Shown here in pieces: positions 1,839 through 46,752 of a stretch of 64,000 nucleotides of DNA. Under the pieces are notes generated by a model. It was not told where the DNA came from. It worked only from the letters and a program-made list of their open reading frames with translations, and did not search any database. Both the position numbers and the translations under genes were made by a program. Origin of the DNA: a virus; the IMG/VR virus record IMGVR_UViG_3300009128_001633, positions 1 to 64,000 of that record. The stretch is one strand, 5' to 3'. The stretch's first letter is position 1; each line of letters begins with the position of its first letter.

Positions 1839-3059
1839 ATGAAGATAGGATATTTGAAATTCTGTATGCAGATGGAACTTGACATCACTAACGCTAAAGT
1901 TGGAAACATAGAAGGTCGTGCAACTTTGTTCCGTGCGATCATAGATGCTGGATGGGACTTAACATTATATTCACAAGTAACAAAACACGATGAAAATTTA
2001 TTAGCTGGATATGACATTAGAAATAACTATGGCATAGATAACAGATGGATACGATCAATTAAATATAAGCCTGACCAACCAGCTGACCAAGACACAAAAC
2101 TTTTGATAGTTGAAAATGGACCTGACAATTGGATGTTTAAAACAAGATACAATGATAATCAACCATTCATAAGAAGATGTGCCGAAGTTATGAATTCATA
2201 TTCAGGATTAGTATTCATATTTGGAATACATCCTGATGTGCCTTTTCCCCTGGATAAACTCGCTCATTGCAAAGTGGGATTTAATAGTAAACATAATGTT
2301 TATCGCAGAGGAAAAGGAAGTCACGTAGATCATGGTTGGGCATCATATGATGAAATTTGCAAACACAAAAAACTCATATTTTTCAACCAAGCTTATAATC
2401 AAGAAAAATATCTAGACAATTATGATAGGAAAAGGCAAGGTTATCGAAAACACAAAGTCAAATTTTACAGGCTTCCAATATTGTATGGCAGATGGTTACT
2501 GCCAAAATACATTAGAGACACTCCTTATCGTGAAGAAGTTAAGCTTGAATTTGTTTATTTGGGATATCCACGCTATAGAGAAAAAGAATATAGATATTAT
2601 TTATTTGATCAAAAATTTAGAATTGATGCATGGGGACCGTGGCATAAGAAAGCTAACTTGGAATTTAATCAAGAAGCAAGTGAACATGGTACCGTTGTTC
2701 ATAATTTTCTACCCGCTCAGGTGATGTGTACAGATATATATTGGCAAGCACATCTTTCATTTGGATTAATATCACAAAAACTCCAAGAATGTGGATGGGT
2801 AACGCATAGGACACTAGAGACTATCCAGTCTGGTTGTATATTGTTAGGCATACATGGAGTTGATGGAGTTGATGATTATCTTTATCCAGCATTTCAAATG
2901 TCAAGTAGAAAAGAACTGGGAGCAAAAGTTAAACAAATATTAAGTTTAAATCACAAGAAAAAGAAACAATTATGGAGAGATCAATTTGAAAAGATAAAAA
3001 AATATGATGGTAAGTTTATGCTAAAATATTTAATGAAGATTTTTAGAAAAGAATCATGA
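1839..3059 (+). CDS. T4-type DNA beta-glucosyltransferase homolog (GT-B fold)
   Basis: Colinear similarity to T4 BGT as recalled: MKIG/MKIA, LLIVENG/RLIVVNS, VMNSYSGLVF/FMAKYKSKIY, LEFVYLG/LDVIYGG, REKEYRYYLFD/RESKMVEFLFD, WVTHRTLETIQS/FITLRVWETMAS, FQMSSRKEL/FYVNNRAEL. Confidence 0.75.
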   Translation: MKIGYLKFCMQMELDITNAKVGNIEGRATLFRAIIDAGWDLTLYSQVTKHDENLLAGYDIRNNYGIDNRWIRSIKYKPDQPADQDTKLLIVENGPDNWMFKTRYNDNQPFIRRCAEVMNSYSGLVFIFGIHPDVPFPLDKLAHCKVGFNSKHNVYRRGKGSHVDHGWASYDEICKHKKLIFFNQAYNQEKYLDNYDRKRQGYRKHKVKFYRLPILYGRWLLPKYIRDTPYREEVKLEFVYLGYPRYREKEYRYYLFDQKFRIDAWGPWHKKANLEFNQEASEHGTVVHNFLPAQVMCTDIYWQAHLSFGLISQKLQECGWVTHRTLETIQSGCILLGIHGVDGVDDYLYPAFQMSSRKELGAKVKQILSLNHKKKKQLWRDQFEKIKKYDGKFMLKYLMKIFRKES

Positions 3060-3232
3060 ATAATATAACATACAAAGCTTTTGAAATAATATGTGCAATA
3101 ATTATAATATATTTGATAATGTGCAATATTATGTTTTCATTTAATCATCCAAACTTAAATCAATTTCAGCTATTTAGACATCCAATAGAATTTCTTTTAT
3201 GGGATAGAGTGAATGGGGGGGAAAATGAATAA
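3056..3232 (+). CDS. Small membrane protein (58 aa, below the ORF-track cutoff)
   Basis: ATGA overlap; MNNITYKAFEIICAIIIIYLIMCNIMF... has one hydrophobic segment; fills the intergenic gap. Confidence 0.55.
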   Translation: MNNITYKAFEIICAIIIIYLIMCNIMFSFNHPNLNQFQLFRHPIEFLLWDRVNGGENE

Positions 3233-3521
3233 AAATATCTGGCAAGTATATTTATTAAAATGTTATAAAGATGGGACATATTATTGTGGCATAACCAATG
3301 AAATAGTTAGCAGACTACTAAGACATCATAATGGTACGGCTTCTAAATATACAAGAGGAAGAGGACCATTTAAACTTCTAGCAATAACTGGACTTATAAC
3401 AAGAAGCAGAGCACTTAAAATAGAACATCTTATAAAGAAAACTAAAAAGAAAAATAAAATAATGAAAATGATATTAATATCGAAAAAGATTGAAAGAGAA
3501 AGGATGGAAGATGAAAAATAA
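3225..3521 (+). CDS. GIY-YIG nuclease (UPF0213/YhbQ-like)
   Basis: WQVYLLKC..GTYYCGITN....RL..HHNG.ASKYTRGRGP...ALKIEHLIKK. Confidence 0.9.
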   Translation: MNKNIWQVYLLKCYKDGTYYCGITNEIVSRLLRHHNGTASKYTRGRGPFKLLAITGLITRSRALKIEHLIKKTKKKNKIMKMILISKKIERERMEDEK

Positions 3522-3711
3522 TGGCGCGGACTTAGAAACTGTAAATAACTTGACAAGCATTTTAATTATATTTCTAAAAGATAGACCAGAAAGTTTAATA
3601 GAGAAAACAACAGCATTAAAATCCGCTGCACATATGATAGATGAATCAATACTCTCAACATCATCAGCTATGAATTTGAAAAAAATCTTTGAAAGCATAG
3701 GGAAAGGATAA
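3511..3711 (+). CDS. Hypothetical protein
   Basis: ORF tiling the operon. Confidence 0.55.
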   Translation: MKNNGADLETVNNLTSILIIFLKDRPESLIEKTTALKSAAHMIDESILSTSSAMNLKKIFESIGKG

Positions 3712-3716
3712 TTAAA

Positions 3717-4343
3717 ATGAAAAAGAAACCATTGTTAGAAATATTTGATAACCTAAAATATCCAGAATGCTTCAGTGGGTTCTATTTATTAAGAACTGGA
3801 TGGATAGAACTAGATTTAGTGGCAAGATTAAAATGCTATCAATGCGGAATTTACAAAAGAGCAATATTATGTCCACCATATCTATGGCAAACATATTCTC
3901 AATTTAAAACATTTAAATCAACAAGAAAATTCATAGATAGTTTTGATTTCGTGGCTATTTTCATATGGAAAAATGATGGAACTAAATCATGGAAAATTAA
4001 CAAATCTGAACTAAGCCACGTGACTTTTAAAAAGAAAATGGGTAGAAGTCTAAAGGGTACAGAAAGTGGACAAGCAAGAGAAATAACTATGCTTATGAAA
4101 AAGTATAGAAGGGAGATTAAGAAAAATGGATATGATAACTTTTGTTTCATCCCCGGACATTGTGACTTATGTGGGCGTAAGTGTCCTAATCGCGACAACC
4201 CTCCTTGTAAGAGGAAAGGAATGCCTAGTATGGAATCTGTTGGGATTGATGTATATAAACTACTTGAAAAGATAGAAGTAGAATACGAATATCCTGTAAT
4301 TAATTATATGACTAATGTTACAATGATGTTAGTAAAGAGGTAG
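3717..4343 (+). CDS. DUF2284-family Cys-rich metal-binding protein
   Basis: RLKC..CG.Y.....CPP, G.CDLC...C......C and PSMESVGIDV motifs. Confidence 0.8.
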   Translation: MKKKPLLEIFDNLKYPECFSGFYLLRTGWIELDLVARLKCYQCGIYKRAILCPPYLWQTYSQFKTFKSTRKFIDSFDFVAIFIWKNDGTKSWKINKSELSHVTFKKKMGRSLKGTESGQAREITMLMKKYRREIKKNGYDNFCFIPGHCDLCGRKCPNRDNPPCKRKGMPSMESVGIDVYKLLEKIEVEYEYPVINYMTNVTMMLVKR

Positions 4344-4424
4344 AAATATGGAAATGAAATATTAGGGATTCAACTAATGTAATTGTAGAATGGGAGAATA
4401 TATTTTAAAAAAGGAGGAAGAAAA

Positions 4425-4871
4425 ATGCCAAACGGACACAGAAAAAGACCATTGAGTGAATTCGGAAAACATGATTATGCAGATCATGGAACATCAAGCT
4501 GTAAATATGGATGCGGATGTTGGGCGGGGTCAACCATGTCAGGTGGTCCAGTCGGAATAGACCCATTCGGACAATGTCATGAAAATGTACCCGACGAGAG
4601 CCGTGACACAGACTATGAAGATCTCGTAAACGGACGTATTGATAAACTTGAATCTGAAGTGTATAGACTTAAAGAATTTGAAGAGATAGTTATCAAAAGT
4701 AGAGAAAATTCAAAGGTTAATTTAGTTCAGGAAAACAGCGAAATTAGATCAAAAATAAATAGGTTGTCACATTTTATACATAATACATTTAAAGAAATTG
4801 ATACACTTAGTGACAAACATGATAAACTAAGGAAGGAAATTATGGAGCATGAAGAAGACAACAGTGGTTAA
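4425..4871 (+). CDS. Hypothetical protein (Cys/His N-terminus plus coiled coil)
   Basis: AGGAGG RBS; CKYGCGC motif. Confidence 0.7.
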   Translation: MPNGHRKRPLSEFGKHDYADHGTSSCKYGCGCWAGSTMSGGPVGIDPFGQCHENVPDESRDTDYEDLVNGRIDKLESEVYRLKEFEEIVIKSRENSKVNLVQENSEIRSKINRLSHFIHNTFKEIDTLSDKHDKLRKEIMEHEEDNSG

Positions 4872-5151
4872 CTGTAAAAGAGAAGAATACGATATATTAA
4901 TAGATAGAAAAACACCATATGGTAATCCATTCGTAGTTGGAAAAGATGGAGATCGCAAAACAGTTATTAAAAAACACAAAGATTGGTTATCAGGTAAAAA
5001 ATTTAAGAAGTTCTTGCAAAAAAGAAGAAAATATGTCTTACAACGAATACCATTAATGCAAGGAGAACGCTTAGGATGATGGTGTGACCCATCGCCGTGT
5101 CACGGTGATACGTATGCTGAGTTAGCAGATGCATATAAGGAGAAGGAATAA
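4849..5151 (+). CDS. DUF4326-family protein with in-frame TGA (candidate selenocysteine) at 5077-5079
   Basis: N-terminal YDILIDR.TPYGNPF..GKDG.R is DUF4326-like. Reading through TGA gives LG*WCDPSPCHGDTYAELA, matching the family motif LGCWC.P..CHGD.L. TAA at 5149-5151 lies 2 nt before the next ATG. Confidence 0.75.
5091..5109 (+). promoter_or_regulatory. Candidate bacterial SECIS hairpin
   Basis: ATCGCCG-TGTCA-CGGTGAT stem-loop with a GU-containing loop, starting 11 nt after the TGA; GC-rich in an AT-rich genome. Confidence 0.6.
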
Positions 5152-5153
5152 AT

Positions 5154-5462
5154 ATGGATAATGGCAGAAGAGATTTTATAAAAACAATGGCACTAACAAT
5201 AGTTGGATCTACACTCATTGGTATAAGGTTTCCTGCTGAAGATTTCCTTTTAACGAAACCAAAATTTTTTGATAAATCTGTAAATATAGTCGCAATAAAT
5301 TTTGAATCTGGCATTCAACTACAGTTTTCTGTTGCTAGGAATGTATGTCCGATACTTGAATTAGAAGATGTTATAAAAGTAAACTGCAATCATGGTAGTC
5401 AACAATTAATTAAAAACCAATCTTTTACAATAACAAATATAGAGGAGATTAGTGATGCATAA
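5154..5462 (+). CDS. Small protein with twin-arginine (Tat)-like signal
   Basis: N-terminal GRRDFIK followed by a hydrophobic stretch. Confidence 0.6.
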   Translation: MDNGRRDFIKTMALTIVGSTLIGIRFPAEDFLLTKPKFFDKSVNIVAINFESGIQLQFSVARNVCPILELEDVIKVNCNHGSQQLIKNQSFTITNIEEISDA

Positions 5463-6000
5463 TTTTAAACTAGTAGAAAGGTTTACAATAAAGAAACCAA
5501 CATTAGTTCTAGATGAAAAATCTTTAAACTGTTTTTTATACCAGTTTAAAGAAGGTGGTTTTTCTATAAAGCAATTCACAGATTGGTTAGAAGGGAAAAT
5601 AATAGATGTGTTTGAGTTTACTGGAAGATTTGGTAAAAGCACAACATGTCCTTGGTGTGATAATGTAATTTATAGCGTTGAAGATTGTGCAAAAGATCAT
5701 AAAAAGACAGAAGAAGATGTTGAAACAATTAAACTATCAAATCACTTATATAAGCTACAATTAGAATATACAAGGAATGGCAATTATGATGCACTACACC
5801 TCTTAATGAACAAATCGTGTCAATATTGTATTAATCCAACCATTAAAGGTCGTGAAGGTAAATGTGCAATACCTGAAAGTTCTCGTAATAAACCACGCAG
5901 TGTTAGAACATTAGGTCTAGGATTCAGAGGGTTTAACCATAAAAAGTATGGGTCAAATACTGTATGCATACTGTATAGACGTAAACCAATAAATAAATAA
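5455..6000 (+). CDS. Divergent DUF2284-like Cys-rich protein
   Basis: FGKSTTCP, SCQYC, KCAIPE...PRSVRTLGL resemble the DUF2284 motifs of 3717..4343. Confidence 0.5.
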   Translation: MHNFKLVERFTIKKPTLVLDEKSLNCFLYQFKEGGFSIKQFTDWLEGKIIDVFEFTGRFGKSTTCPWCDNVIYSVEDCAKDHKKTEEDVETIKLSNHLYKLQLEYTRNGNYDALHLLMNKSCQYCINPTIKGREGKCAIPESSRNKPRSVRTLGLGFRGFNHKKYGSNTVCILYRRKPINK

Positions 6001-6013
6001 GGAGGGCAATAAA

Positions 6014-7066
6014 ATGATAGACTTAATAGAGAATGAAACAAAAAACTTTAAAAATCTCAAAAGATTCAAAGAGTACGTTAAAGACCAAGATGTAAGAAAA
6101 CGTGAAAGATTAGTACAATTTTCTGATTGGGAAATGGGTAAAAATGGTTTAAGATTAAAAACAAAAAAAGGAAAATTCACAACATTTCCAATAAGAGATT
6201 CTGGTATGAAAACTTTGCTCCGAACTTTTCAAATGCCAGTTAACTTTTACTATAGAAAATCACCAACCGATATGCTAGTTAGAGACATAAACAGAATGAG
6301 AGATGAATATTCACCAGATAGTGAATTTATTGTTTTCTTACAAAAACCAGAAAACGGTGGTAGAAAAGAAGTTAGAGCAGTAGCCAAACCAAACACAAGA
6401 CATGTAACTGATCATATCACACTTCTTGATAGTACAGACCTTAATAAAAAATTATTTGAACGAGCATCTTATAGCGATCTAGGAGTAAGGATCACAACGT
6501 CAGACGAATCTAAAGCAATAAAAGTAACAAAGGGTGATATAATTAATATGGGCGTAGAACTAATGTATTCAGACGTAGGATTTTTTACAACTTCTGGCAA
6601 CCCATTTCTTAATAGATTAGTTTGTACAAATGGAATGGTTATGAAAGAAAAAAATCCATTATTAACAAATTTCACTATGTCATTCGGTCCAAGAATGACT
6701 GAAGAAAACTTTTTATCAACACTAAATCACAATATAGATACAGTTGAAGCAGATACAAAGATTTTAAAAAGAACATTTAAATCAATGAAAAGTAATCCTG
6801 TGATGGCTCTTCCAATGGGTCTTTCACAAATGAAAAAGATAAGATCTGCCATAGGTATAGAAAAATTTGATGCACATGAAAAATTATCAACTAAAATAAT
6901 GGAAGGTGAAACAGAAAAAAGAATGATAAATACTGATCTTGAACTATATTCAGCACTTGACGTTGTAACCAGAATGGCTAAGGGATATGATTATTTAAGT
7001 CGCAGAAGAATAGAAGGACTTGCAGGTGGATTAATATTAATGAGTGCAGAGAGTTTGCCAAGCTAA
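6014..7066 (+). CDS. DUF932-like phage protein
   Basis: G.ELMYSDVG......PFLNRLVCTNGMV signature; GGAGG RBS. Confidence 0.7.
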   Translation: MIDLIENETKNFKNLKRFKEYVKDQDVRKRERLVQFSDWEMGKNGLRLKTKKGKFTTFPIRDSGMKTLLRTFQMPVNFYYRKSPTDMLVRDINRMRDEYSPDSEFIVFLQKPENGGRKEVRAVAKPNTRHVTDHITLLDSTDLNKKLFERASYSDLGVRITTSDESKAIKVTKGDIINMGVELMYSDVGFFTTSGNPFLNRLVCTNGMVMKEKNPLLTNFTMSFGPRMTEENFLSTLNHNIDTVEADTKILKRTFKSMKSNPVMALPMGLSQMKKIRSAIGIEKFDAHEKLSTKIMEGETEKRMINTDLELYSALDVVTRMAKGYDYLSRRRIEGLAGGLILMSAESLPS

Positions 7067-7434
7067 TGAATAAAATAATAGGAATAGTTGGATCTAGAAA
7101 AAGAAATAGTACGAAAGATTACAAAAAAGTTAAACGCAAATTTCTTTTTTTATATGAAGGTGGCGATTTCATTTGTTCAGGAAAATGTCCAAAAGGAGCT
7201 GACAAATTTGCTGTAATCTTAGCAAGCTTATTTGTACCTCCGGAAAATAGGTTGTGGTTTCCACCTAATTGGAACAAATATGGTAAATCAGCAGGATTTA
7301 TAAGAAACACAAAAATAGCAAGAGTTTCAGAATATCTCATAGCTTGTGTAACAAAAAATAGAAAAGGAGGCACTGAAGATACTATTGAAAAGTTTATTAA
7401 ATTTCATGGAAAGGAGAATTTGTACATACTGTGA
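7066..7434 (+). CDS. SLOG/YspA (DUF2493)-like nucleotide-binding protein
   Basis: IGIVGSR, SG.CPKGAD, W.KYGKSAGFIRN..I, GGT..TI. Confidence 0.85.
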   Translation: MNKIIGIVGSRKRNSTKDYKKVKRKFLFLYEGGDFICSGKCPKGADKFAVILASLFVPPENRLWFPPNWNKYGKSAGFIRNTKIARVSEYLIACVTKNRKGGTEDTIEKFIKFHGKENLYIL

Positions 7435-7673
7435 AACCAATAAAAAAGATTTTTACTAGAGCGTTCAGTATTGTATTTGCCGGAGGTCCAATTCTATAGC
7501 TTCAGTGGGAAAATATTCAAAGCATGACAATCTATGATGTTATAATGATGATACTATTTATGTTGGTAGTATTTTCATGGTTATTTTTTGTATTTTATTC
7601 TTTCATGGGAGATGGATTCATAAAAGTTCTAGATCTTAACCTTTTAAAGAAAGGAAAAACTTTTGAAATTTAA
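7431..7673 (+). pseudogene. Small membrane protein interrupted by an in-frame TAG (7497-7499)
   Basis: GTGA overlap and AAGGAG RBS; MKPIKKIFTRAFSIVFAGGPIL*LQWENIQSMTIYDVIMMILFMLVVFSWLFFVFYSF... continues in frame to TAA 7671-7673. Confidence 0.45.
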
Positions 7674-7686
7674 TAAGGAGGAAAAA

Positions 7687-7947
7687 ATGAATGATAAATC
7701 AAGACAAGTACAAAGAAGACCAGGAATTTATCCAGAATGCGATGTTGATGGATGTGGTGACCCAGTACAATACGAGATTGGATTAAAAAGCAGAATAGTA
7801 TTCAAACTATGCAGATTTCACGTTGAACCTGGAAGAGATAAGCTGGATGAATTTACAGTGGAATATTTAAAACTTGAACAGAAAATGCATAAAGAATTAC
7901 GAAGTGCCATAAGGGGTTTACCACTAAGAAAGGGGATGGAACAATGA
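7687..7947 (+). CDS. Hypothetical zinc-finger-like protein
   Basis: AAGGAGG RBS; CDVDGC...LCRFH. Confidence 0.7.
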   Translation: MNDKSRQVQRRPGIYPECDVDGCGDPVQYEIGLKSRIVFKLCRFHVEPGRDKLDEFTVEYLKLEQKMHKELRSAIRGLPLRKGMEQ

Positions 7948-9146
7948 AAAATGAAATAATATACGCAGAGATTTCTAAAGACATAAATGACTCTTTTGAA
8001 ACAGCATTATGTAACTTAAATGAAATAGAAGATGAAGATGCACTAATGATAAGAGGCAAATCAGTAAAGGAAATAGTTGATTACAAATTTGTTATAGAAA
8101 ACCCAATAAGAAGATTTTTGACGTGTCCATATAGATATAACAACATAATGGCAACAGTCGCAGAAGTCTTATGGGTTTTTTCTGGAAGAAACGATCTTGG
8201 ATATCTTAGCTACTTTCTGCCAAATGCAGCAGACTTTAGTGATAACGAAGGACAAACTTGGGGAGGAGCATATGGACCTAGATTAAGATATTTTTCTATA
8301 TTTAATAGGGATTATGCATATGATCCAGAATCCATGCCATCAAAAATCCCATCGTATGATCAGATTAAAAACGTTATAGAAACTTTAAAAGAAGATCCAT
8401 TCTCACGACAAGCAATAATAGAAATTGCACAACCAGACGTTGACTATGATCACAGAATTAAAACAAAGGATAGACCATGCACATTATTCATTCAATTTCT
8501 CATAAGAGATGGCAAGCTAGATTGTTTTGTTAAAATGAGATCAAACGATGTTATGTGGGGATGTTATAATATTAATGTATTTGAATGGACTTTTCTTCAG
8601 GAAATAATAGCTGGAATTTTAAATGTAGAAGTTGGATACTATAACCATAATGCAGTATCTTTTCATCTATACATGTCAATGAATGACAGAGTCCAAAAGA
8701 TGATAAATGCAAAAAAGTATAATGTGTATAATGTTGAAAGAGTGTTAATACAACCAATTAAGTTCGCACAACTTGATGGGTTCTATATCGCAACTGAACA
8801 TTGGATGAGATGTATAGAAAAATCAATTGCTGATCCTAAATGGGAATATAATGAAGAAGATGCGTATAATTATCTTGGAACAAATACAATGCCATACCTA
8901 CATTACTTGAATTTGGTTCTTGCTTTTATTGCCATGAAACAAAAGAAATATGAAAAAGCATATCAGCTTCTATGCTTCATTGATCAATGGGACATATTAA
9001 TAGCTGGACTAGAATATTTCATTCGTTATATTAAAAGAAATACAGATGACAATACAGAACGTAATATGATAAACAAAATATCAAACCAATCAAACATGAC
9101 ACAAGATAGTTTTAAATTCATAATAGGATTATGGGATGAAGTATAG
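7944..9146 (+). CDS. Thymidylate-synthase-family enzyme, likely dUMP hydroxymethylase
   Basis: AYGPRL, DPFSRQAII, catalytic PCT, MRSND, SFHLY. The Asn in INVFEW aligns with E. coli ThyA Asn177. Long C-terminal extension. Confidence 0.8.
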   Translation: MKNEIIYAEISKDINDSFETALCNLNEIEDEDALMIRGKSVKEIVDYKFVIENPIRRFLTCPYRYNNIMATVAEVLWVFSGRNDLGYLSYFLPNAADFSDNEGQTWGGAYGPRLRYFSIFNRDYAYDPESMPSKIPSYDQIKNVIETLKEDPFSRQAIIEIAQPDVDYDHRIKTKDRPCTLFIQFLIRDGKLDCFVKMRSNDVMWGCYNINVFEWTFLQEIIAGILNVEVGYYNHNAVSFHLYMSMNDRVQKMINAKKYNVYNVERVLIQPIKFAQLDGFYIATEHWMRCIEKSIADPKWEYNEEDAYNYLGTNTMPYLHYLNLVLAFIAMKQKKYEKAYQLLCFIDQWDILIAGLEYFIRYIKRNTDDNTERNMINKISNQSNMTQDSFKFIIGLWDEV

Positions 9147-13762: not shown

Positions 13763-13954
13763 ATGCCAGAAGGCTATGAAAAATTAAGAGATAAATTTAT
13801 AAAGGATGGTATGAACGAAAAAGAAGCAAAAAAGAAGGCAGTAAGAATATGGAATGCACAAAATCCCGACAACCCTGTGACGAAAACTCATGAAGACTTT
13901 AGACATCTTGACTTGGAGGGAATAGAAGATGACAGACCTATTAAACTTCTTTAA
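13763..13954 (+). CDS. Small hypothetical protein
   Basis: Strong AAGGAGGTG RBS. Confidence 0.75.
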   Translation: MPEGYEKLRDKFIKDGMNEKEAKKKAVRIWNAQNPDNPVTKTHEDFRHLDLEGIEDDRPIKLL

Positions 13955-14624
13955 AACGGTAAGGAGGCTTACATTTATTGAACGATGTTCTAATATCCTG
14001 CACATACATAAAAGTACGGTTTCTGATCATTCGTTTTATGTCGCATTATATGCAATGGTATTTGCAGATATGGAAAATTATAAAATATTAAATGAAGTAG
14101 GAGAAGCAATTGGAAATGGAGTTGGCAATGATAAAAAACTTTCGAAAGAAAAAGTAAGAAATTTATTATACAATACATCGGAAGTTGTTAAACGTTCCCT
14201 AATACATGATTTAGAAGAGTCATTGACTGGCGACATTTTGTATCCAGTAAAGCATGAAGTAAGACCTGCCAAACTACTTTTAGATCAAGCGATTCAGAGT
14301 ATTGTTAATAACGAATTGTTTGAAAGCATACCAGATTACTCAACAAAAAAATATTATAAAATCCTTTGGCAAAAATCAAAAGATAACTCAAAAGAAGGTA
14401 GATTAGTTGCTGCAATGGATAAATTTGAAATATTAATGTATTCATTGCAAGAAATTTTGCTTGGTAATAAACAATTTGGAATTATTTTCAAAACTGCTTT
14501 TGATATCTTAAGAACTGAATTCAAGAGCATAGAAACGCTACAGGGCGTTTTGGATTCTATTGAAAAGGAGGTGAGTACATACGGTCTTAATCTAGTTTCA
14601 CAAAAAGATGTTAATAATGAATGA
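13929..14624 (+). CDS. HD-domain 5'-deoxynucleotidase (YfbR-like)
   Basis: R....ER......TVSDHSFYVA, LIHDLEESLTGDI..PVK, AAMDKFE. Confidence 0.9.
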   Translation: MTDLLNFFKTVRRLTFIERCSNILHIHKSTVSDHSFYVALYAMVFADMENYKILNEVGEAIGNGVGNDKKLSKEKVRNLLYNTSEVVKRSLIHDLEESLTGDILYPVKHEVRPAKLLLDQAIQSIVNNELFESIPDYSTKKYYKILWQKSKDNSKEGRLVAAMDKFEILMYSLQEILLGNKQFGIIFKTAFDILRTEFKSIETLQGVLDSIEKEVSTYGLNLVSQKDVNNE

Positions 14625-16697: not shown

Positions 16698-17270
16698 ATG
16701 CCAACAACAGAATTTGAACTATCTATAAGAATGGATACAAAGGAGAAAAAAATGGATGATAACGAAAAAAAGGGAATACTTAAACGTGGAATGAAAAGAC
16801 CAGACTGGGATCAATATTATCTAAATTTAGTTCCACTAATTGGCAAAAGAGCAACATGTGATAGAGGAAGAAGTGGAGCATTACTTGTAAGAGACCACAA
16901 GATTATAGCAAGTGGATACGTTGGAAGCACTCCAGGAGAACCACACTGTGACGATATTGGTCACGAAATTATTACAGTTTGGCATCACGATACAGGTAAA
17001 AAATCAGATCACTGTGATAGAACTCTTCATGCAGAAGAAAATGTAATACTGCAATGTGCTGAATTTGGGATACCTGCAAAAGGGAGTACATTGTATTGTT
17101 GGATGACACCATGTTTTAAATGTGCAAGAAGAATAGTTAGAGTTGGAATAGTTAGAGTTGTTGCAGTGATGAGGTATCACGATGAAAAAAGAACAATAGA
17201 CCTTTTTGGAAGAAGAGGGATTGAATTTAAGGTGTCTACAGATAAAGTAGAGGATTATAAAAATGAGTAA
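16698..17270 (+). CDS. dCMP deaminase (ComEB/DCD family)
   Basis: RPDWDQYY, RATC.R...GA, HAEEN, TPC..C. The true start may be a downstream ATG. Confidence 0.92.
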   Translation: MPTTEFELSIRMDTKEKKMDDNEKKGILKRGMKRPDWDQYYLNLVPLIGKRATCDRGRSGALLVRDHKIIASGYVGSTPGEPHCDDIGHEIITVWHHDTGKKSDHCDRTLHAEENVILQCAEFGIPAKGSTLYCWMTPCFKCARRIVRVGIVRVVAVMRYHDEKRTIDLFGRRGIEFKVSTDKVEDYKNE

Positions 17271-23503: not shown

Positions 23504-23740
23504 ATGATAGGCAAACCTATAAATTGGAAAGCAATAACTACTTTTAATAAGTCCAAAAATACAAGAGACCTTATTAAGAAATTAAGATCAACAAAAGGTC
23601 TTTCATATAAACAGATAGCTATAATACTTGGTATCTCCAAATCTGCAGTATGGAATAAAGCACAAAAACTTGTAGAAGAAGGAAAATTAAAAACATTTGA
23701 ATTAACAAGAACCAAAAAGGAGGGCAAAAATGGAAAGTAA
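23504..23740 (+). CDS. Helix-turn-helix DNA-binding protein
   Basis: GLSYKQIAIILGISKSAVWN. Confidence 0.85.
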   Translation: MIGKPINWKAITTFNKSKNTRDLIKKLRSTKGLSYKQIAIILGISKSAVWNKAQKLVEEGKLKTFELTRTKKEGKNGK

Positions 23741-24398
23741 AATAATCTTACCATTAGATGGAATGACAATTAGTGAAACGACAAACATTGCTTCACAAAC
23801 TAAAGGAAAAGTGTGGGGTTTTAAAGTTAATGATCTTTTAATAGATCATGGGTTAGAAATTGTTAGAGGTCTAAAAACATTTGGCAAAGTAATGGCGGAT
23901 CCTAAATTATACGATATACCAAACACAATGACCAATTCAATTAAAAAACTAACAAATGCCGGAGCAGACATCATCACTGTTCATATGGAACCAAAATATA
24001 AACCACCATCTGAATATCTTCAAAAAATAGCAGGAGTAACTATATTAACAACTATGGATGACAATAGATGTGAAGATGTTTATGAAGCTCCTGCAGTTGA
24101 AATTATTGAATATTTTAAAGAAGACGCTGTTGATCTTGGGTATGGATATTTAGTGTGTTCAGGAGGAGATTTAAAAGATCTACATTTTAATGGTTGTTAT
24201 ATTAAAAAAATATGTCCCGGAATAAGACCCAAATGGGCTATAGTTAAAGATGATGATCAGAAAAGAATAACGACACCAAAACAAGCAATAGAATTAGGTG
24301 CAGATCTTCTTGTTATAGGCCGTCCAATTACACAAGCTAAAGATATAATTAAAGCATTGGATTTAACAAATAAAGAGATAGAGGAGGCATTAAAATGA
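23730..24398 (+). CDS. pyrF: Orotidine-5'-phosphate decarboxylase
   Basis: ILPLD, DPKLYDIPNT, ITVH, VTILTT, PGIRP, DDQKR..TP, VIGRPIT. Confidence 0.95.
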   Translation: MESKIILPLDGMTISETTNIASQTKGKVWGFKVNDLLIDHGLEIVRGLKTFGKVMADPKLYDIPNTMTNSIKKLTNAGADIITVHMEPKYKPPSEYLQKIAGVTILTTMDDNRCEDVYEAPAVEIIEYFKEDAVDLGYGYLVCSGGDLKDLHFNGCYIKKICPGIRPKWAIVKDDDQKRITTPKQAIELGADLLVIGRPITQAKDIIKALDLTNKEIEEALK

Positions 24399-25018
24399 GA
24401 AACGAAGAATATTTAATAGATCTTTTAGAGAAAGCAAATGTAATTAAATATGGACATTTTGTCGGCACATCAGGAAAACACTTAGATACATATGTTCTAA
24501 AAGATGCTATAATAAGAAACGGAGAAGCTTTTCCAGAAATTTGTAATGAATTGGCAAGATTAATAATAAGAAATATACAAAACTGGAAAAGGGTACATTT
24601 TCTAACAGGACCTGCGACAGTCGGTGCTGTATTTGCTGGAATAATTGGGTTTATATTAAATAAGCCATTCGTTTTTCCAGAAAAAGAAAATGTATCACCA
24701 ATTGAAGTGGAACCTGATGGTTTGATAAATGATACTAGAATGGTTTTTCGTCGTGGACACAACAGAGCAATAAAAGGTAAAAGTTTAATAATTGTAGAAG
24801 ATGTTGCAACAACCGGAGGGTCAATAACTAAAACAGCAAATGCTATAAGTGAAAATGGAGGGATCGTGATAGGAGTTGCACTAATATGGAACAGGTCAAA
24901 CTTTCATTTACAAGGTGTTCCAACATTTTCTCTTATAAATAGAGAACTTGATAGTTGGAAAAAATTAAATTGTCCTATGTGCATGAAGGGTATTAAAATA
25001 GATGACATTAAAGCTTAA
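24395..25018 (+). CDS. pyrE: Orotate phosphoribosyltransferase
   Basis: GHF..TSGKH...Y, PRPP motif IIVEDVATTGGS, C-terminal CPMC..G. Confidence 0.92.
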   Translation: MRNEEYLIDLLEKANVIKYGHFVGTSGKHLDTYVLKDAIIRNGEAFPEICNELARLIIRNIQNWKRVHFLTGPATVGAVFAGIIGFILNKPFVFPEKENVSPIEVEPDGLINDTRMVFRRGHNRAIKGKSLIIVEDVATTGGSITKTANAISENGGIVIGVALIWNRSNFHLQGVPTFSLINRELDSWKKLNCPMCMKGIKIDDIKA

Positions 25019-26158: not shown

Positions 26159-27160
26159 CTACCAGTCGGCGATTCCTTTTATTTTTGAAGCTAAGTTGTC
26201 TACCACTTTTTGAAGACTGAAATATTTTTGATAAAACTTTCTAGGCTTAAATTCACGTTCCTTATCAAGAACATACTTCAAGGCATGAACAAAATCACTG
26301 CCATCTATTCTGACACAAGAGTCATCATAAAAATAATCATCCCATATATATAGTCCATCATTATCTCTAACAACAACTGGTATATCCATGCATAACATCT
26401 CTGGAATAACTCTTGGGCAACTATCACCTTCACTACAACAAACGCCTACCCTTGCCATACAAGCTAATTCAGGAATATCTTTACGAGGAACCCATCCATT
26501 AAACGTTATATTTAAATCTAAATTTTTAGCCAATTCAATAATCTCAGGATCAGTATTACCTATTTGTAATATTTTCAACCCACTGCCATCCATTATTTCA
26601 AGAAACCATTTATGACCTTTTATCTTTTTTTGTTTAGCATTAGCGATAAAAACAACATCATAGATTTTTTCTTTAGAAATAGGATAAAATATATTCCCAC
26701 AAGCAGGTTTTAAAAACTTGTGAACCTCATACCCACTATCTTTTAGTTCCAAAAATTGTTTTCTACTGTCAGCCAATACAAGGTTATAATCCGTAAGGTC
26801 TCCATTGGCCTTTGGGTTAAATCTAGCTTTAAAAATAGCCCCATAGTATAGCTTAAAAGCCTTTGAACATGCTTGCATAACCGGCATGTATTCTTTGAAT
26901 CCACCACGACTAAATATGAAATCAAAGTTCAAATTATCTATCGGAAATTCTCTCCACCACCATTCAATGAAATCATCCAAATATCTAACTGATCTAGGAC
27001 CACCATTCCACATCCATATTTCACTGTGGTTAAACTCAAACTTTTTATGTAACATAAAAAACAACCATATCCACATGTCATCAACTTCATATATAGAATC
27101 AAACATTATTCTTTCTTTATCTTTTGGAACTTCCTGTCTTAACATTAGTCCGGTCTTCAT
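26159..27160 (-). CDS. Glycosyltransferase (GT-B, GT4-like)
   Basis: YDVVFIA.....KG, F.GWVPR..I, DSCPRVIPE.L....PVV. Confidence 0.8.
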   Translation of the reverse strand: MKTGLMLRQEVPKDKERIMFDSIYEVDDMWIWLFFMLHKKFEFNHSEIWMWNGGPRSVRYLDDFIEWWWREFPIDNLNFDFIFSRGGFKEYMPVMQACSKAFKLYYGAIFKARFNPKANGDLTDYNLVLADSRKQFLELKDSGYEVHKFLKPACGNIFYPISKEKIYDVVFIANAKQKKIKGHKWFLEIMDGSGLKILQIGNTDPEIIELAKNLDLNITFNGWVPRKDIPELACMARVGVCCSEGDSCPRVIPEMLCMDIPVVVRDNDGLYIWDDYFYDDSCVRIDGSDFVHALKYVLDKEREFKPRKFYQKYFSLQKVVDNLASKIKGIADW

Positions 27161-28245
27161 AGTTCACTCCTACTTATTATTTCAGCTATTTTAGCTCCCG
27201 CCATACCATCTCCAATTGCTTTTGATTCCAATTGATCTTTTCTTTTAAAAGCATAAGAAGCCCTTTCGCTTATTGCGTTCGGATTAACACCAACTAAATC
27301 AACGTGACCAGATTTAACTAGATTATCCCACTCTGTTACATTTCTTAAAACAATACATGGCACACCGAAGAATGCTGATTCCTTCTGTACTCCACCAGAA
27401 TCTGTTATTATAACTTTTGCATTTTTCTCCAATGACAACATATCGTTGTAACCAACAGGATTTATGACAAAAAAATCTTTAGTCATCCTAAATAACTTAT
27501 CCAACCCAATATTTTCTATAGCTTCCATTGTCCTGGGATGCATTGGAAAAACAATAGGACATCTACCAATACAAAGCATTAATAATCCTTCAACTATTTG
27601 TTTGAGATTGTCATTATCTGGAGAAGTATTTATTTCCCTATGAACAGTGACCAATATATACTTTCTTTTTTCAACTTCTAATTTATTAAGTATATTGTCA
27701 ACTATCTTGTCTTTAAATTGAAGAAACATATCATACATTACATCACCAACTAAATAAACATTTGATTCTATTCTTTCATTCGATAAATTTTCCATAGATT
27801 CAATAGTTGGACAAAAAAGAATCTCAGACATGTGGTCTATTACTATTCTATTCATTTCTTCAGGCATCATTTCAAAACTTCTCATACCTGCTTCTATATG
27901 TATTAGTGGAATTTCCATCTTACAACAAGCAACTGCTCCAGATATAGCTGAATCTGTATCACCAAAAACTATGACATAGTCAGGTGAATCCATTTCTATT
28001 ATTTTCTTTATTTCAGTTATTGTTTGTGAAAGTCTTAACATGCGATTTTCTCTAGACACATTAAGCATATATCTACATTTACCATTCATATTAAAATCAT
28101 TAAAAAATATATCTGACATATTTTCATCATAATGATGACCAGTATGTATTAGTTTTTCTTCTATTCCATACTCTTTTAAATGTTTAGAAATTCCAGCAGA
28201 TTTTATGAATGTTGGTCTAGCACCAATAACAGTAAGAACTTTCAT
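27157..28245 (-). CDS. wecB: UDP-N-acetylglucosamine 2-epimerase (non-hydrolysing)
   Basis: VIGARP.FIK, HTG.HYD, GDT, HIEAG.RS, MPEE.NR, T.HR..N, TDSGGVQKE, R..TEW. Confidence 0.95.
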   Translation of the reverse strand: MKVLTVIGARPTFIKSAGISKHLKEYGIEEKLIHTGHHYDENMSDIFFNDFNMNGKCRYMLNVSRENRMLRLSQTITEIKKIIEMDSPDYVIVFGDTDSAISGAVACCKMEIPLIHIEAGMRSFEMMPEEMNRIVIDHMSEILFCPTIESMENLSNERIESNVYLVGDVMYDMFLQFKDKIVDNILNKLEVEKRKYILVTVHREINTSPDNDNLKQIVEGLLMLCIGRCPIVFPMHPRTMEAIENIGLDKLFRMTKDFFVINPVGYNDMLSLEKNAKVIITDSGGVQKESAFFGVPCIVLRNVTEWDNLVKSGHVDLVGVNPNAISERASYAFKRKDQLESKAIGDGMAGAKIAEIISRSEL

Positions 28246-28811
28246 TTTATTATTCCTTTAAACAAAAATATCTTAGAATTCTTTTTATGGTTCATTAATA
28301 TAACCTGCATTGATTCAAAGTCCACAACTTCTTTATATCTATCAACAACAAGCTCAACTGTTGCAAAATATCTAACATGAGAAGCAAAATCCCTGTTAGG
28401 CACAGAACATATTATTGTAGATCTCTTAGGTATGCTTTTTAGAACTTCTATGTCTTTAGTTATGTGTTCAAGAACCTCCAAACATACGAATATCATATCA
28501 CTTTCATATAATTTTAATATGTTAACATCTAATAAATTGCTACAAATAAATTTATAATCTGAAACACGATTAATTGCCTTGCTTATAACTTCTTTAGAAA
28601 AATCAATGCCTATATAATTCTTATAGTTTTTCTTTGAAAGCATTTCAGCAAAAAAACCAGCACCACAACCAAGATCCACTATGGTTGGACAAAAATTTGA
28701 TGACGGTAAATAATTAATGACTTGTTCATATAACTTAAAATAACGCTTAAATCTATTTCCTTTTATATAACCATCACCAGTATAATATTCTGGACCTCTT
28801 TCAGTTCCCAT
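28242..28811 (-). CDS. SAM-dependent methyltransferase
   Basis: IVDLGCGAG, GIDFS, CLEVLEHI, SVPN. Confidence 0.9.
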   Translation of the reverse strand: MGTERGPEYYTGDGYIKGNRFKRYFKLYEQVINYLPSSNFCPTIVDLGCGAGFFAEMLSKKNYKNYIGIDFSKEVISKAINRVSDYKFICSNLLDVNILKLYESDMIFVCLEVLEHITKDIEVLKSIPKRSTIICSVPNRDFASHVRYFATVELVVDRYKEVVDFESMQVILMNHKKNSKIFLFKGIIK

Positions 28812-29748
28812 ATAATTCCTCTGTAATAATATCTGTCATTTGTTTCACTCTCACCTCACAACTGTGATTTTTTCTAACAAATTTCATGCCATTATTAGCT
28901 ATTTTTTCTCTCTCATTATCATTTTCTGGTTTTATATAATACAATATTTTCTCTTTAAAATCATCAAAACCATCATAAACAACAAAATGCTTACCATCTT
29001 CATAACCGAGCCTATTCAAATCTTTTGGTCTATCAGCTAAAAGAAAACCACCACAAGCAAGAGTTTCAGTGTATCTCATACTAAATGATTCAAAAATATT
29101 ATTACTTGTAACTACTATTTTTGAACGATTAATTGCCTTAACTAATCGTTTATGTATCACTCTTTTAACTATTGAATTTAAATCCATATTAATCAATATA
29201 TCACGAATGATATGCCTATATGGATAAACTTCTGGTCTAACTGTATAAGCGACTAATACATCACTATCTTTAGAAATATCTAATTTTCTAAAGACGTTTG
29301 TATCTACAGAAAATGGTAAAAAACGAATCTTTTTACAAGCCTTATGTTCTTTTAAAAGATTAACTGCTGGAGTAGTAATACCAAATATAAGATCATAGTT
29401 ATTCTCTTCAAAAAAAGCACGTTGTACATCTGCTCTTATTCTTATTCTTCTTTTGCTAATATCACTTATGCGAATATAATCGACTGCTACATGAATCCTT
29501 TTTATATCTGACACTTTACTTATATCTTTAAATTTTAAACTATATTTCAAACCATATGTCATAATCAAATCTGGTTTTGAGTTACAGTACCTATCTATAA
29601 CTTCCTTAGTAGTAAAACTTTCATCAAAATCAGGATATCCTTCACCCCAGTAAACAACTTCATGATGTTTACTAATTTCGTTTCTGAATAATTGATGTCC
29701 CCAATTATATCTACTAATTTGATTGGGACTTAACAATAATATCTTCAT
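28801..29748 (-). CDS. Glycosyltransferase (CgeB/Glyco_trans_1_2-like)
   Basis: LPFSVD...F, INRSKI, RY.E.LACG.FLL, REKIANNG..FV...H. Confidence 0.88.
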   Translation of the reverse strand: MKILLLSPNQISRYNWGHQLFRNEISKHHEVVYWGEGYPDFDESFTTKEVIDRYCNSKPDLIMTYGLKYSLKFKDISKVSDIKRIHVAVDYIRISDISKRRIRIRADVQRAFFEENNYDLIFGITTPAVNLLKEHKACKKIRFLPFSVDTNVFRKLDISKDSDVLVAYTVRPEVYPYRHIIRDILINMDLNSIVKRVIHKRLVKAINRSKIVVTSNNIFESFSMRYTETLACGGFLLADRPKDLNRLGYEDGKHFVVYDGFDDFKEKILYYIKPENDNEREKIANNGMKFVRKNHSCEVRVKQMTDIITEELYGN

Positions 29749-29749
29749 A

Positions 29750-30268
29750 CTATATCCTTTCGTCTTCTCTAACTTCTCCTATTTTAGTTGCCGGTCTACC
29801 TCTATATATGCAATTAGGACTTGTATTTTTAGCCACCAATGATCCAGCTTGAACCATAGAGTTTCTGGCTATTCTCACTGATGGCATGATAATAACTCCT
29901 GCACCTATGCGTGTTCCGCATTCAATATATGGAGGTTCTGATAATGGCTTATAATGTCTGGCATGAGATATTTCTTTTGTGTTAGTAGTTACGACACCCA
30001 TTCCAATGAAAACATTATCTTCAATTACACAACCTTTACATATGTTAGAGAATTGCATAACTCTAACATTTTGTCCAATACGAGCTCCTTCGGCTATAAA
30101 ACAAAAGGATCTAACTTCCGACTTATTGCCAATTATAACACTAGGTCTAATAACAGTGTGATGACCAATGAAACAATCATTCCCAATATTTGTATCTTCT
30201 GATACCACTGCACCATATTCTATTCTTGTATAATTCCCTATTATAGCCAAATCACTAATCTCATTCAT
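29750..30268 (-). CDS. Hexapeptide-repeat acetyltransferase
   Basis: Left-handed beta-helix repeats; G.PA..I C-terminus. Confidence 0.9.
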   Translation of the reverse strand: MNEISDLAIIGNYTRIEYGAVVSEDTNIGNDCFIGHHTVIRPSVIIGNKSEVRSFCFIAEGARIGQNVRVMQFSNICKGCVIEDNVFIGMGVVTTNTKEISHARHYKPLSEPPYIECGTRIGAGVIIMPSVRIARNSMVQAGSLVAKNTSPNCIYRGRPATKIGEVREDERI

Positions 30269-30269
30269 A

Positions 30270-30779
30270 TTAGCTCCTTAAAAGGAATACCTCTTTTTCA
30301 GTAACATCTCGTAATTTCCTAGCTGGAATTCCAACGTATAGACCATACGGTTCTGTGTTCTTATTCACAAGGCTACATGCTCCAATGATACAATTCGAAG
30401 CAATTTTCACTCCATTCATAATAACAACGTCATCACCAACAAAGCAACCATTACCAACAATTAATGGGTTTGAAATAGCTCTTTTATTATAGATTGTTTC
30501 AACCCCAACTGAAAAATATACATTATCTTCAATTATAACATTTCTTGCTATAACTGATTTATATCTTAAAGTGACATTATCACCAATAACATTACCACCA
30601 GATGATATAACATAACTATCTATAAAAACATTATTACCTATTCTTGTCCCTTTTTTAAGAAACACATGATTGCAAATTTCAACATTATATCCAACAACAA
30701 CATTTTCCTCAATAATATTAAAATGTCCAATTTTTAAACCATTACCACTCATGAATGAATTGTGTATTATGTTATACAT
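30270..30779 (-). CDS. Hexapeptide-repeat acetyltransferase
   Basis: Hexapeptide repeats; IGACSLV.K......VGIPAR. Confidence 0.9.
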   Translation of the reverse strand: MYNIIHNSFMSGNGLKIGHFNIIEENVVVGYNVEICNHVFLKKGTRIGNNVFIDSYVISSGGNVIGDNVTLRYKSVIARNVIIEDNVYFSVGVETIYNKRAISNPLIVGNGCFVGDDVVIMNGVKIASNCIIGACSLVNKNTEPYGLYVGIPARKLRDVTEKEVFLLRS

Positions 30780-31551
30780 GATTTAATCTCCCGTATATTG
30801 TTAATACATTTTCATAAAACAATCCATTCTTAACTTCATCAGTAATATTAGATAAATTAATGCAATATATAGCCATTCTTAAATCAGCATATGGTTCATC
30901 AGATCCAAATATGATTTTACGTTTTCCTAATTTATCTACAGCTTTTTCAATAAGCCACGGAAGTTTAACAGAAGAAGTATCCAGATATACATTATCTAAT
31001 CTCTCAATATATAATAAGTCTATGGCTCTTTCAATAAGATCTGCTGCATTGCCGCCAAGATGAGCAGCAATAAAATTTATAGTCTTAAATCTTTTGGCGG
31101 CATCTATCAAATACTTAATATCACTTCGCCAATGTCTTCCGCAATGTACTAATATTGGAAGACTAAATTCAGCAGCACACTCGAGAAAATCATCCATTTC
31201 CGGAACATCAAAGGTTGTTTCAGATATACTAGGATGATATTTTAGACCGCATATTATATCATTATAAAGAGATATCTGTTTCAAAGTCTCACTATCTTTT
31301 GGATCAATAACAAGTAACGGATAAAAAACTACTGGAAAAGACCATTTAGAATACTCTTCAATGAATTGCATATTCAGTGTAGAACTCTTCACTATATTAG
31401 ACAAATTAGGCATAACTACAGATCCATAAATACAATTTTCCATTTCCATAATTAATTCATGATAACTTTTTAACGAAAAGAACCTTTCTGTTTTTTCAGT
31501 TTTTCCTATATGTACATGACTATCAATTATAATGTTTTCAACTTTTTTCAT
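30772..31551 (-). CDS. Amidohydrolase-family metal-dependent hydrolase
   Basis: IDSHVHIG, GLKYHP, PILVHCG, AAHLGG, YLDTS, IFGSDEP. Confidence 0.92.
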   Translation of the reverse strand: MKKVENIIIDSHVHIGKTEKTERFFSLKSYHELIMEMENCIYGSVVMPNLSNIVKSSTLNMQFIEEYSKWSFPVVFYPLLVIDPKDSETLKQISLYNDIICGLKYHPSISETTFDVPEMDDFLECAAEFSLPILVHCGRHWRSDIKYLIDAAKRFKTINFIAAHLGGNAADLIERAIDLLYIERLDNVYLDTSSVKLPWLIEKAVDKLGKRKIIFGSDEPYADLRMAIYCINLSNITDEVKNGLFYENVLTIYGRLNHV

Positions 31552-36222: not shown

Positions 36223-36395
36223 TCTTTTATTTTTTTATAATCATTTTTAGTCCACTTTTCTTCTTTAGGATACACACAATATTTCGTACAATCAGGATGC
36301 ATATCTCTAATGTTCTTCTTGTCTTGCTCGGTCAAAATAACCATCACCGGCTCTTTCTCTCTATCATAAACTTTATTACCAACTTTTACTTTCAT
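36201..36395 (-). CDS. Hypothetical protein
   Basis: Tiles the operon; GAGGGGG RBS. Confidence 0.6.
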   Translation of the reverse strand: MKVKVGNKVYDREKEPVMVILTEQDKKNIRDMHPDCTKYCVYPKEEKWTKNDYKKIKDWMKEGV

Positions 36396-38668: not shown

Positions 38669-38677
38669 TTTAAACTC

Positions 38678-39742: not shown

Positions 39743-39813
39743 AATTACTAAAACACTGGCCTTCTCATATTGTGATTAACAATTTCTCAATCCACAATTA
39801 ACAAGGTTAAAAG

Positions 39814-43570: not shown

Positions 43571-43579
43571 TTTGCCCTC

Positions 43580-43945: not shown

Positions 43946-43964
43946 ATCGCCCTCCTAAAGTTAA

Positions 43965-44955: not shown

Positions 44956-44966
44956 TTATATACCTC

Positions 44967-45194: not shown

Positions 45195-45230
45195 TTTTCC
45201 ACCTCCTTTAAATTAGTATAATATAGTTAA

Positions 45231-46726: not shown

Positions 46727-46752
46727 AGTTATATCTCCTGTTTTGCTATGAA

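Follow-up and report, generated by a model that had tools for sequence, protein, structure and literature searches.

A putative dUMP hydroxymethylase and a remote T4 β-glucosyltransferase homolog point to probable direct glycosylation of 5-hydroxymethyluracil in the DNA of a marine phage group

The window analyzed here is a 64,000-nucleotide (nt) stretch of DNA from an uncultured marine phage and corresponds to positions 1 to 64,000 of a 95,856-bp IMG/VR virus record (IMGVR_UViG_3300009128_001633), which is classed as linear and estimated to be 69% complete. On its + strand, the window encodes two proteins that together suggest a hypermodified genome: a homolog of the β-glucosyltransferase (BGT) of phage T4 (open reading frame [ORF] 1839–3059; protein P0001, 406 amino acids [aa]) and a member of the thymidylate synthase (TS) family (ORF 7944–9146; protein P0002, 400 aa), both present as described by a first-pass annotation made from the sequence alone. 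That annotation had proposed that thymine is replaced by 5-hydroxymethyluracil (hmU), which is then glycosylated directly, and this order of events finds support in sequence comparison, structure prediction, and comparative genomics. We think it fairly likely that hmU is made before replication and glycosylated directly on the DNA; the acceptor, the sugar (including its being glucose), the anomeric linkage, the degree of thymine replacement, and the biological role are what we infer from the evidence laid out below.

A putative uracil-type hydroxymethylase and its glycosyltransferase partner

ORF 7944–9146 very probably encodes a dUMP hydroxymethylase (5-hydroxymethyl-dUMP synthase), as judged from its alignment signature and its relatives. 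P0002 matches the TS family in Pfam (PF00303, 5.6e-24), and its best match in the PDB is the CMP hydroxymethylase MilA (2.7e-28), with true thymidylate synthases far behind (1e-13). Its best phage relatives are the proteins of Maribacter phages Molly and Colly (48% identity; Molly gp103), Bacillus phage G, SPO1 (gp29, 38%), SP-10, CP-51, and PhiW-14, several of which have been verified or annotated as dUMP hydroxymethylases. When P0002 is aligned with Escherichia coli ThyA, T4 gp42, SPO1 gp29, SP10 gp188, PhiW-14 gp230, and Molly gp103, the catalytic cysteine (ThyA C146) and D169 are kept, aspartate replaces L143, and asparagine occupies the position of N177, a signature that is the same in SPO1 gp29, SP10 gp188, and PhiW-14 gp230 (Asp176 of P0002 lies in a KDRPC motif identical to that of SPO1 gp29). 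An acidic residue at the L143 position correlates with a hydroxymethyl, not a methyl, product (Lee et al. 2026, PMC13326640); by the same account, asparagine at position 177 denotes a uracil substrate and aspartate a cytosine substrate, and D169N combined with N177D marks the 5-hydroxy-dCMP synthases of the RB69 gp48 type (PMC13326640). P0002 carries neither of these last two substitutions, having Asp202 and Asn211 at the respective positions.

The first-pass annotation had taken the asparagine of INVFEW to be the equivalent of ThyA N177, exactly 20 residues ahead of an invariant glycine, and the alignment bears this out (Asn211, the glycine being equivalent to G197), together with the MRSND and SFHLY motifs, the loss of the ThyA DRTG motif, and a long C-terminal tail (~140 aa) that is common to verified dUMP hydroxymethylases. 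The aspartate that it placed at the 177 site of the T4 dCMP hydroxymethylase is likewise present in gp42, as it is in MilA, unlike the situation in P0002. P0002 also lacks the W80/W83 segment of ThyA, and its long C-terminal extension, which SPO1, SP10, and PhiW-14 have as well, replaces the closing ThyA C terminus.

The product of ORF 1839–3059 is, by sequence profiles and a predicted structure, a remote homolog of T4 BGT with a GT-B fold composed of two Rossmann-like domains. Searches with the single sequence give no indication of this: P0001 matches no Pfam family at an E value of ≤0.01 and no PHROG, nothing in the PDB by phmmer at an E value of ≤10, and nothing by tblastn among 50,697 phage records. 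The distant family members P0016, P0027, and P0055 also came up empty in tblastn against cultured phages, and related-locus searches returned no loci, whether a single protein or one of the alignments A5 and A6 served as the seed. When 1.84 billion cluster representatives were searched with a profile, 179 proteins were recovered at an E value of ≤0.001; outside its own cluster, P0001 has ten closer relatives (45 to 78% identity). The 35-member family profile (A2), when run against 177,635 PDB sequences, matched T4 BGT alone (E value, 1.4e-17), and hhalign placed A2 on the T4 b-gt product with 98.4% probability (E value, 4e-15) over 333 columns that span residues 1 to 346 of 351 and both Rossmann domains. 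Only six of the 35 family members match, and weakly so, the generic Pfam model Glyco_trans_1_2. Since the curated Pfam model does not recognize it, the family is best read, on sequence grounds, as a separate, remote branch of the T4 BGT family, which we take to be CAZy family GT63.

An AlphaFold2 model of P0001 (predicted local distance difference test [pLDDT] score, 78; predicted template modeling [pTM] score, 0.81) leads to the same enzyme. Its six best Foldseek matches are all T4 BGT (E values, 2e-11 to 1e-9), followed by the next family at 4e-8, and VIA-align ranks T4 BGT first (Z, 22.4 to 22.7; 323 to 336 residues aligned, with a best alignment of 332/344; 16 to 17% identity), the runners-up being glycosyltransferase family 4 (GT4) enzymes (Z ≤21.2 at 9 to 11% identity, with BshA at Z 21.2 and 9%) and T4 AGT (Z 20.2). 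We regard the homology to T4 BGT as secure because the profile result and the structure match stand together; the structural margin alone is small.

The first-pass annotation had described a motif-by-motif alignment with T4 BGT, which holds for the UDP-binding arginine and glutamate motifs and becomes visible only with profile or structure methods. Four residues of P0001 (R245, R247, R324, and E327) align with the Arg191/Arg195 and Arg269/Glu272 motifs of T4 BGT, its UDP-sugar binding residues, and all four are invariant or nearly so within the family (R247 is invariant and R324 nearly invariant in the 35-member A2, and E327 is invariant in alignment A1). In a conserved motif of the N-terminal domain, E25 is nearly invariant and R27 invariant (A1). 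The ATG at 1839 is the correct start of the gene, since the first predicted β-strand (MKIGY...) aligns with the N terminus of T4 BGT. Like T4 BGT (isoelectric point [pI], 9.05), P0001 is basic (pI 9.4). Its gene lies on the + strand, within the early/replication module and a long way from the glycan island described below. Many distant members of the family are longer (540 to 630 aa) and bear a cysteine-rich C-terminal extension (CxG...CxxC...C), possibly a zinc ribbon, which P0001 does not have.

That ORF 1839–3059 glycosylates hmU in DNA is, in our view, a reasonably probable function, supported by the co-occurrence of its family with hydroxymethylases. Scanning IMG/VR by pattern plus tblastn for loci of the glycosyltransferase family recovered one close relative (L011, whose glycosyltransferase is 78% identical) and five loci with distant members at ~30% identity (L017 to L021). 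All five of the whole records behind L017 to L021 contain a TS homolog, and every partner TS homolog (those of G001, G002, G003/G004, G005, and L011/G006) has D143, D169, and N177; G003 and G004, which are identical in sequence here, were counted once, for five independent lineages besides the window. In each record fetched via a member of the glycosyltransferase family, the glycosyltransferase and hydroxymethylase genes lie 4 to 8 kb apart. Two of these records are complete genomes with terminal repeats (G004, 109.6 kb; G005, 140.1 kb): G005 has a single TS homolog, and the two matches in G004 are halves of one intein-split homolog. In this hydroxymethylase (761 aa in G003/G004), the intein-like insert interrupts the active site exactly between the residues equivalent to ThyA D169 and N177, and joining the exteins (slash) restores ...RSNDAIWGF/SNINFYEW.

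Beyond the pair itself, comparison of the ±10-kb loci shows that the group of G001, G002, and G004 shares just RecA and a 5′-3′ exonuclease with the window, and since so few other genes are common to them, the pairing is not merely a matter of shared ancestry within one phage clade. A reverse scan seeded with the hydroxymethylase returned 11 loci, five of which have a member of the glycosyltransferase family within 10 kb, and no such member exists anywhere in G007 or G008, which are complete or near-complete records with a hydroxymethylase. Because the glycosyltransferase is always paired in the fetched records and the hydroxymethylases of G007 and G008 occur without it, the glycosyltransferase depends on the hydroxymethylase and not vice versa, which is the pattern expected of an hmU-tailoring enzyme. 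A metagenome scan for the family yielded only short contigs (2.6 to 4.8 kb) without usable context.

The same pair is also encoded within one operon by phages Molly and Colly (Molycolviridae), which are cultured marine phages with a Bacteroidota host. hhalign relates the Molly glycosyltransferase to the window's family at 99.3% probability, the Molly enzyme being longer and acidic (473 aa, pI 5.6) where that of the window is shorter and basic. The Molly hydroxymethylase is of the uracil type, is 48% identical to that of the window, and is encoded directly downstream of the glycosyltransferase. Because genes for a UDP-glucose dehydrogenase and an epimerase/dehydratase precede that of the Molly glycosyltransferase, the arrangement suggests that the sugar on hmU in Molly is a uronic acid or a sugar derived from one. 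DNA modification is absent from the text of the Molly/Colly isolation paper.

From these observations, we propose the following pathway. The TS homolog would make 5-hydroxymethyl-dUMP from dUMP, with dUMP supplied through a dCMP deaminase and two pyrimidine-synthesis genes and with an HD-domain nucleotidase probably depleting thymidine nucleotides; the DnaE-type polymerase of the phage would then incorporate hmU where T would otherwise stand. Once the DNA has been replicated, the GT-B enzyme of ORF 1839–3059 would probably flip out hmU and, without passing through a phosphorylated intermediate, move a sugar from a nucleoside diphosphate-sugar directly to the 5-hydroxymethyl group of the base, and the outcome would be a glycosyl-hmU (base-J-like) genome resistant to host nucleases. 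Whether O-glycosyl-hmU replaces most or all thymine in the virions of this phage group, as well as in those of Molly and Colly, is, by our estimate, evenly balanced (in the present phage, the sugar might be further extended or tailored by part of the island), and it is rather unlikely that the sugar is a β-glucoside, i.e., that the base is true base J.

Table 1. Features of the window and of related loci (positions without a locus prefix refer to the window)
Feature	Coordinates	Strand	Evidence or details
T4 BGT-like GT-B glycosyltransferase (P0001, 406 aa), proposed hmU-DNA glycosyltransferase	1839..3059	+	profile, hhalign, Foldseek, VIA-align
Glu25-Gly-Arg27, conserved motif of the N-terminal domain, within one column of T4 BGT Glu22 (placement uncertain by one residue)	1911..1919	+	hhalign
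His131-Pro-Asp133 in IHPDVPFPL; His131 at the T4 BGT Asp100 column	2229..2237	+	hhalign
Arg245-Tyr-Arg247, aligned with the T4 BGT Arg191/Arg195 phosphate-binding motif	2571..2579	+	hidden Markov model (HMM) alignment, hhalign
Arg324...Glu327 (HRTLET), aligned with T4 BGT Arg269/Glu272 (LRVWET)	2808..2819	+	HMM alignment, hhalign
DUF2284 predicted metal-binding protein	3717..4343	+	PF10050 2.1e-20
Putative dUMP hydroxymethylase (5-hmdUMP synthase), TS family (P0002, 400 aa)	7944..9146	+	Pfam, alignment signature
Asp176-Arg-Pro-Cys179: Asp at ThyA L143, equivalent of catalytic Cys146	8469..8480	+	alignments
Asp202 (ThyA D169, kept) to Asn211 (ThyA N177)	8547..8576	+	alignments
HD-domain YfbR-like 5′-deoxynucleotidase	13929..14624	+	PF12917 2.4e-24; PHROG 7076 "dATP triphosphohydrolase" 7e-11
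dCMP deaminase	16698..17270	+	PF00383 2.6e-18
Orotidine monophosphate (OMP) decarboxylase plus phosphoribosyltransferase	23730..25018	+	PF00215 2.1e-27; PF00156 5.3e-11
Glycan island (27 kb), next to virion genes	26159..53308	-	at least 11 glycosyltransferases
Glycosyltransferase types of the island			GT4-like, six copies; GT2, two; GT9+GT8 fusion, one; GT-D-like, one
Other genes of the island			5 hexapeptide acyltransferases, UDP-GlcNAc 2-epimerase, PIG-L deacetylase, methyltransferase, amidohydrolase
Intein-like insert in hydroxymethylase (starts CLSG..., ends ...VHN/S)	L029:2563-4848 (G004), L030:2841-5126 (G003)		
Examples of glycosyltransferases with Cys-rich extension	L017:8674-10368, L018:10001-11656		also cluster-1 proteins P0015-P0030
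Molly_1 genes 100-103: UDP-glucose dehydrogenase, NAD-dependent epimerase/dehydratase, "beta glucosyl transferase", uracil-type hydroxymethylase	L003:8198-12957		head to tail

Genomic setting and nucleotide metabolism

The window has a GC content of ~31%, and parts of it are present in three DNA sequencing runs, all from one marine metagenome study; no RNA runs containing the stretch are listed among the sequencing runs. From ~1 to 26 kb, the ORFs lie on the + strand and form a module for replication (a split DnaE-type polymerase, RecA, SbcCD-like proteins, an HU-like protein, and a RuvC-like resolvase) and nucleotide metabolism (dCMP deaminase, HD-domain nucleotidase, OMP decarboxylase, and phosphoribosyltransferase), and from 26 kb on, the genes sit on the − strand. 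The replicative polymerase is encoded in separate pieces (9156–11840 and 12781–13680, with PHP/NTPase/finger regions in the first and HhH/OB regions in the second) that have small ORFs between them. A strong terminator-like hairpin (689–715; a 12-bp stem with 6 GC pairs, then a T-run) is located between the first ORF and the string of genes that includes a methyltransferase and the glycosyltransferase, and the transcription unit containing the latter may begin there; a promoter scan rose no higher than background.

Just downstream of the glycosyltransferase gene, a DUF2284 gene occurs in the window and, at identities of 71% and 51%, respectively, in L011 and G005. The DUF2284 gene appears to be split into two ORFs in L011 (L011:7787-8417) and L021 (L021:3917-4605), and a radical SAM enzyme (L021:905-2077) is encoded just upstream of the glycosyltransferase in G005. 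A further modification step is conceivable. Farther along toward the hydroxymethylase gene, ORF 5452–6000 gave no lead to any family, and ORF 6014–7066 is DUF932-like. ORF 7066–7434, located 510 nt upstream of that gene and with a conserved counterpart in L011, looks like an SLOG/DprA-like Rossmann protein, its motifs having been judged by eye; we dismissed it as a possible kinase, since it has 122 aa and no Walker A motif despite its PHROGs label, "GTP-binding domain."

Several genes of the module have a plausible place in the pathway. The dCMP deaminase, whose role in hmU phages has been described (PMC8989533), is the probable supplier of dUMP, and the HD-domain nucleotidase is a candidate for an enzyme that depletes dTMP and dTTP. 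The OMP decarboxylase and phosphoribosyltransferase, representing steps of de novo UMP synthesis that are unusual in a phage and in keeping with a heavy demand for uridine nucleotides, probably boost the supply of UMP. Taken together, these four genes agree with a scheme in which pyrimidines would be channeled through dUMP and thymidine nucleotides removed.

Across the whole 96-kb record, there is one TS homolog only, and neither a TET/JBP domain (PF12851) nor a C5 DNA methyltransferase was found, such that the record holds no other source of a hydroxymethylated pyrimidine. The first-pass annotation saw no P-loop hmU DNA kinase in the window, and this extends to the entire record: neither phmmer nor tblastn detects a match to the 5-hmU DNA kinase SP10 gp186 (at pairwise sensitivity and in a record that is 69% complete), and among the Walker A matches returned by a regular expression, that in RecA is genuine, and those in the TS homolog and in the GT9/GT8 fusion look like chance. 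There is no free P-loop ORF in the 96-kb record, in which aGPT-Pplase and AADT were not specifically searched for. The kinase/amino-acid-transferase route of M6, ViI, PhiW-14, and SP10 is thus not evident in this record.

The − strand contains a glycan island (Table 1) that we treat as separate from the DNA pathway because G005 keeps the glycosyltransferase/DUF2284/hydroxymethylase module with no comparable island seen: in this complete 140-kb genome, none of the three glycosyltransferase Pfam models searched (PF00534, PF00535, and PF13524) scored above the cutoff.

Alternative explanations

Several observations weigh against direct glycosylation of hmU in DNA. Pfam's own T4 glucosyltransferase model gives P0001 no score, and where T4 BGT has its catalytic base, Asp100, the aligned residue of P0001 is His131, with Asp133 following two residues later. 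Both residues are candidates for the base; the family consensus at the column is Asp, and in one relative (P0013) the Asp and His are swapped. The record is only 69% complete, and neither a dUTPase nor a dNMP kinase (with a PhiW-14 query) was found in it, a weak negative given this degree of completeness. Furthermore, no demonstration of glycosyl-hmU in a phage was found in the literature searched. The remaining two points, namely, that the acceptor of a GT-B enzyme cannot be read from its sequence and that the VIA-align margin of T4 BGT over generic GT4 enzymes, which act on small molecules, is just ~1.5 Z, also speak for a specific competitor, in which the phage has plain hmU DNA, as does SPO1, and the target of the BGT-like enzyme is something other than DNA, for instance a protein or small molecule, within a very large glycosylation repertoire. 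The phage does encode at least 11 other glycosyltransferases, but the family pairs with uracil-type hydroxymethylases in lineages that show no comparable island (in G005, by the three Pfam models named above), its sole sequence-level relative in the PDB is a DNA glucosyltransferase, and the gene resides in the replication module and not in the island, all of which make a non-DNA target improbable, if the most credible of the competing explanations.

It is also conceivable, though decidedly less so, that the BGT-like enzyme adds just the first sugar and that the glycosyltransferases, acyltransferases, and deacetylase of the island extend it to an oligosaccharide on hmU. DNA bases with multiple sugars have precedents in tri-arabinosyl, tri-hexosyl, and SP-15/Carin-5-type modifications (PMC13326640; PMC12686479; bioRxiv 2023.12.21.572611), against which stand the position of the island on the opposite strand beside virion genes, its size, which exceeds that of any known DNA glycan pathway, and the lack of a comparable island in complete G005 by the three models mentioned above. 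Least credible, and very improbable overall, is an ordinary TS, or one with some other product, in a phage whose thymine is unmodified and whose glycosyltransferase has as its substrate a cytosine derivative that depends on a gene from the 31% of the genome missing here. The record is indeed incomplete, and the 5-hydroxy-dCMP synthases are an earlier example of TS homologs with an unexpected product (PMC13326640), but several features of P0002 are at odds with this: the aspartate at L143, the missing W80/W83 region, the long C-terminal tail, the retained D169, the asparagine at N177, and the fact that its closest verified relatives are all dUMP hydroxymethylases. Moreover, the TS partner of the glycosyltransferase is uracil-type in every case, including the single homolog of G005 and the one intein-split homolog of G004. 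Direct glycosylation of hmU in DNA therefore remains the reading that we favor.

Relation to known DNA modification systems

Glycosylated 5-hydroxymethylcytosine (hmC) in the T-even phages and amine-modified hmU in M6, ViI, and PhiW-14 are textbook examples of phage counterdefenses, and to our knowledge, O-glycosyl-hmU occurs only as base J of kinetoplastids. If the proposed pathway is correct, it would add a new natural DNA base for viruses and mean that the chemistry of base J has arisen convergently from unrelated enzymes (a TS-family hydroxymethylase and a BGT-type GT-B enzyme); it would also provide a GT-B enzyme for tagging hmU in DNA, potentially useful for hmU mapping, and help to explain why some marine phage DNA is hard to cut or sequence. 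Because Molly and Colly are cultured and carry the same gene pair, the question is directly testable in these phages.

The proposed pathway would be a transfer of the T-even type of hydroxymethyl-pyrimidine glycosylation from cytosine to uracil. It shares with the glucosyl-hmC system of the T-even phages both its logic and its two protein families, a TS-family hydroxymethylase acting before replication and a BGT-type GT-B enzyme acting on DNA. The gp42 and b-gt genes are adjacent in T4 (PDB 1J39/1BGT for BGT). The hydroxymethylase of the window is uracil-type (Asn at 177), whereas that of T4 is cytosine-type (Asp), and the glycosyltransferase is only ~17% identical to T4 BGT, is not recognized by Pfam, and has a histidine at the Asp100 column.

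With the pathways of SPO1/SP8 and of the phages that use a DNA kinase for 5-hmU (5-HMUDK; M6, ViI, PhiW-14, and SP10; PMC8989533), the window shares the dUMP hydroxymethylase family and its signature, supply through a dCMP deaminase, and hmU as the chemical handle. It differs from the 5-HMUDK pathways in having a BGT-like glycosyltransferase and no match to the kinase, and the hydroxyl is predicted to be glycosylated directly instead of being activated by phosphate and then replaced by an amine. The sugars of SP-15, Carin-5, and YerA41 are carried on a linker of the dihydroxypentyl type and not directly on hmU (PMC12686479), and other phages are reported to have T-dioxygenases that produce hmU once replication is complete (PMC13229309). 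GT-B-like DNA glycosyltransferases have been reported to occur often near TS homologs in viral contigs (Pyle et al., bioRxiv 2023.12.21.572611; Cell Rep 2024); that work framed these loci as cytosine sugar pathways, without sorting uracil-type from cytosine-type enzymes by residue 177 and with no glycosyl-hmU product.

The predicted product belongs to the same class as base J, which in kinetoplastids is made by the thymidine hydroxylases JBP1/2 and by JGT: in both cases, the 5-hydroxymethyl group of a uracil in DNA bears an O-linked sugar. The routes to it would differ. In the window phage, hmU would arise before replication from dUMP, whereas base J begins with a TET/JBP dioxygenase acting on DNA; the glycosyltransferase of the window is a BGT-like GT-B enzyme, whereas JGT is related to GT-A enzymes; and the modification expected in the window phage is genome-wide rather than site-specific.

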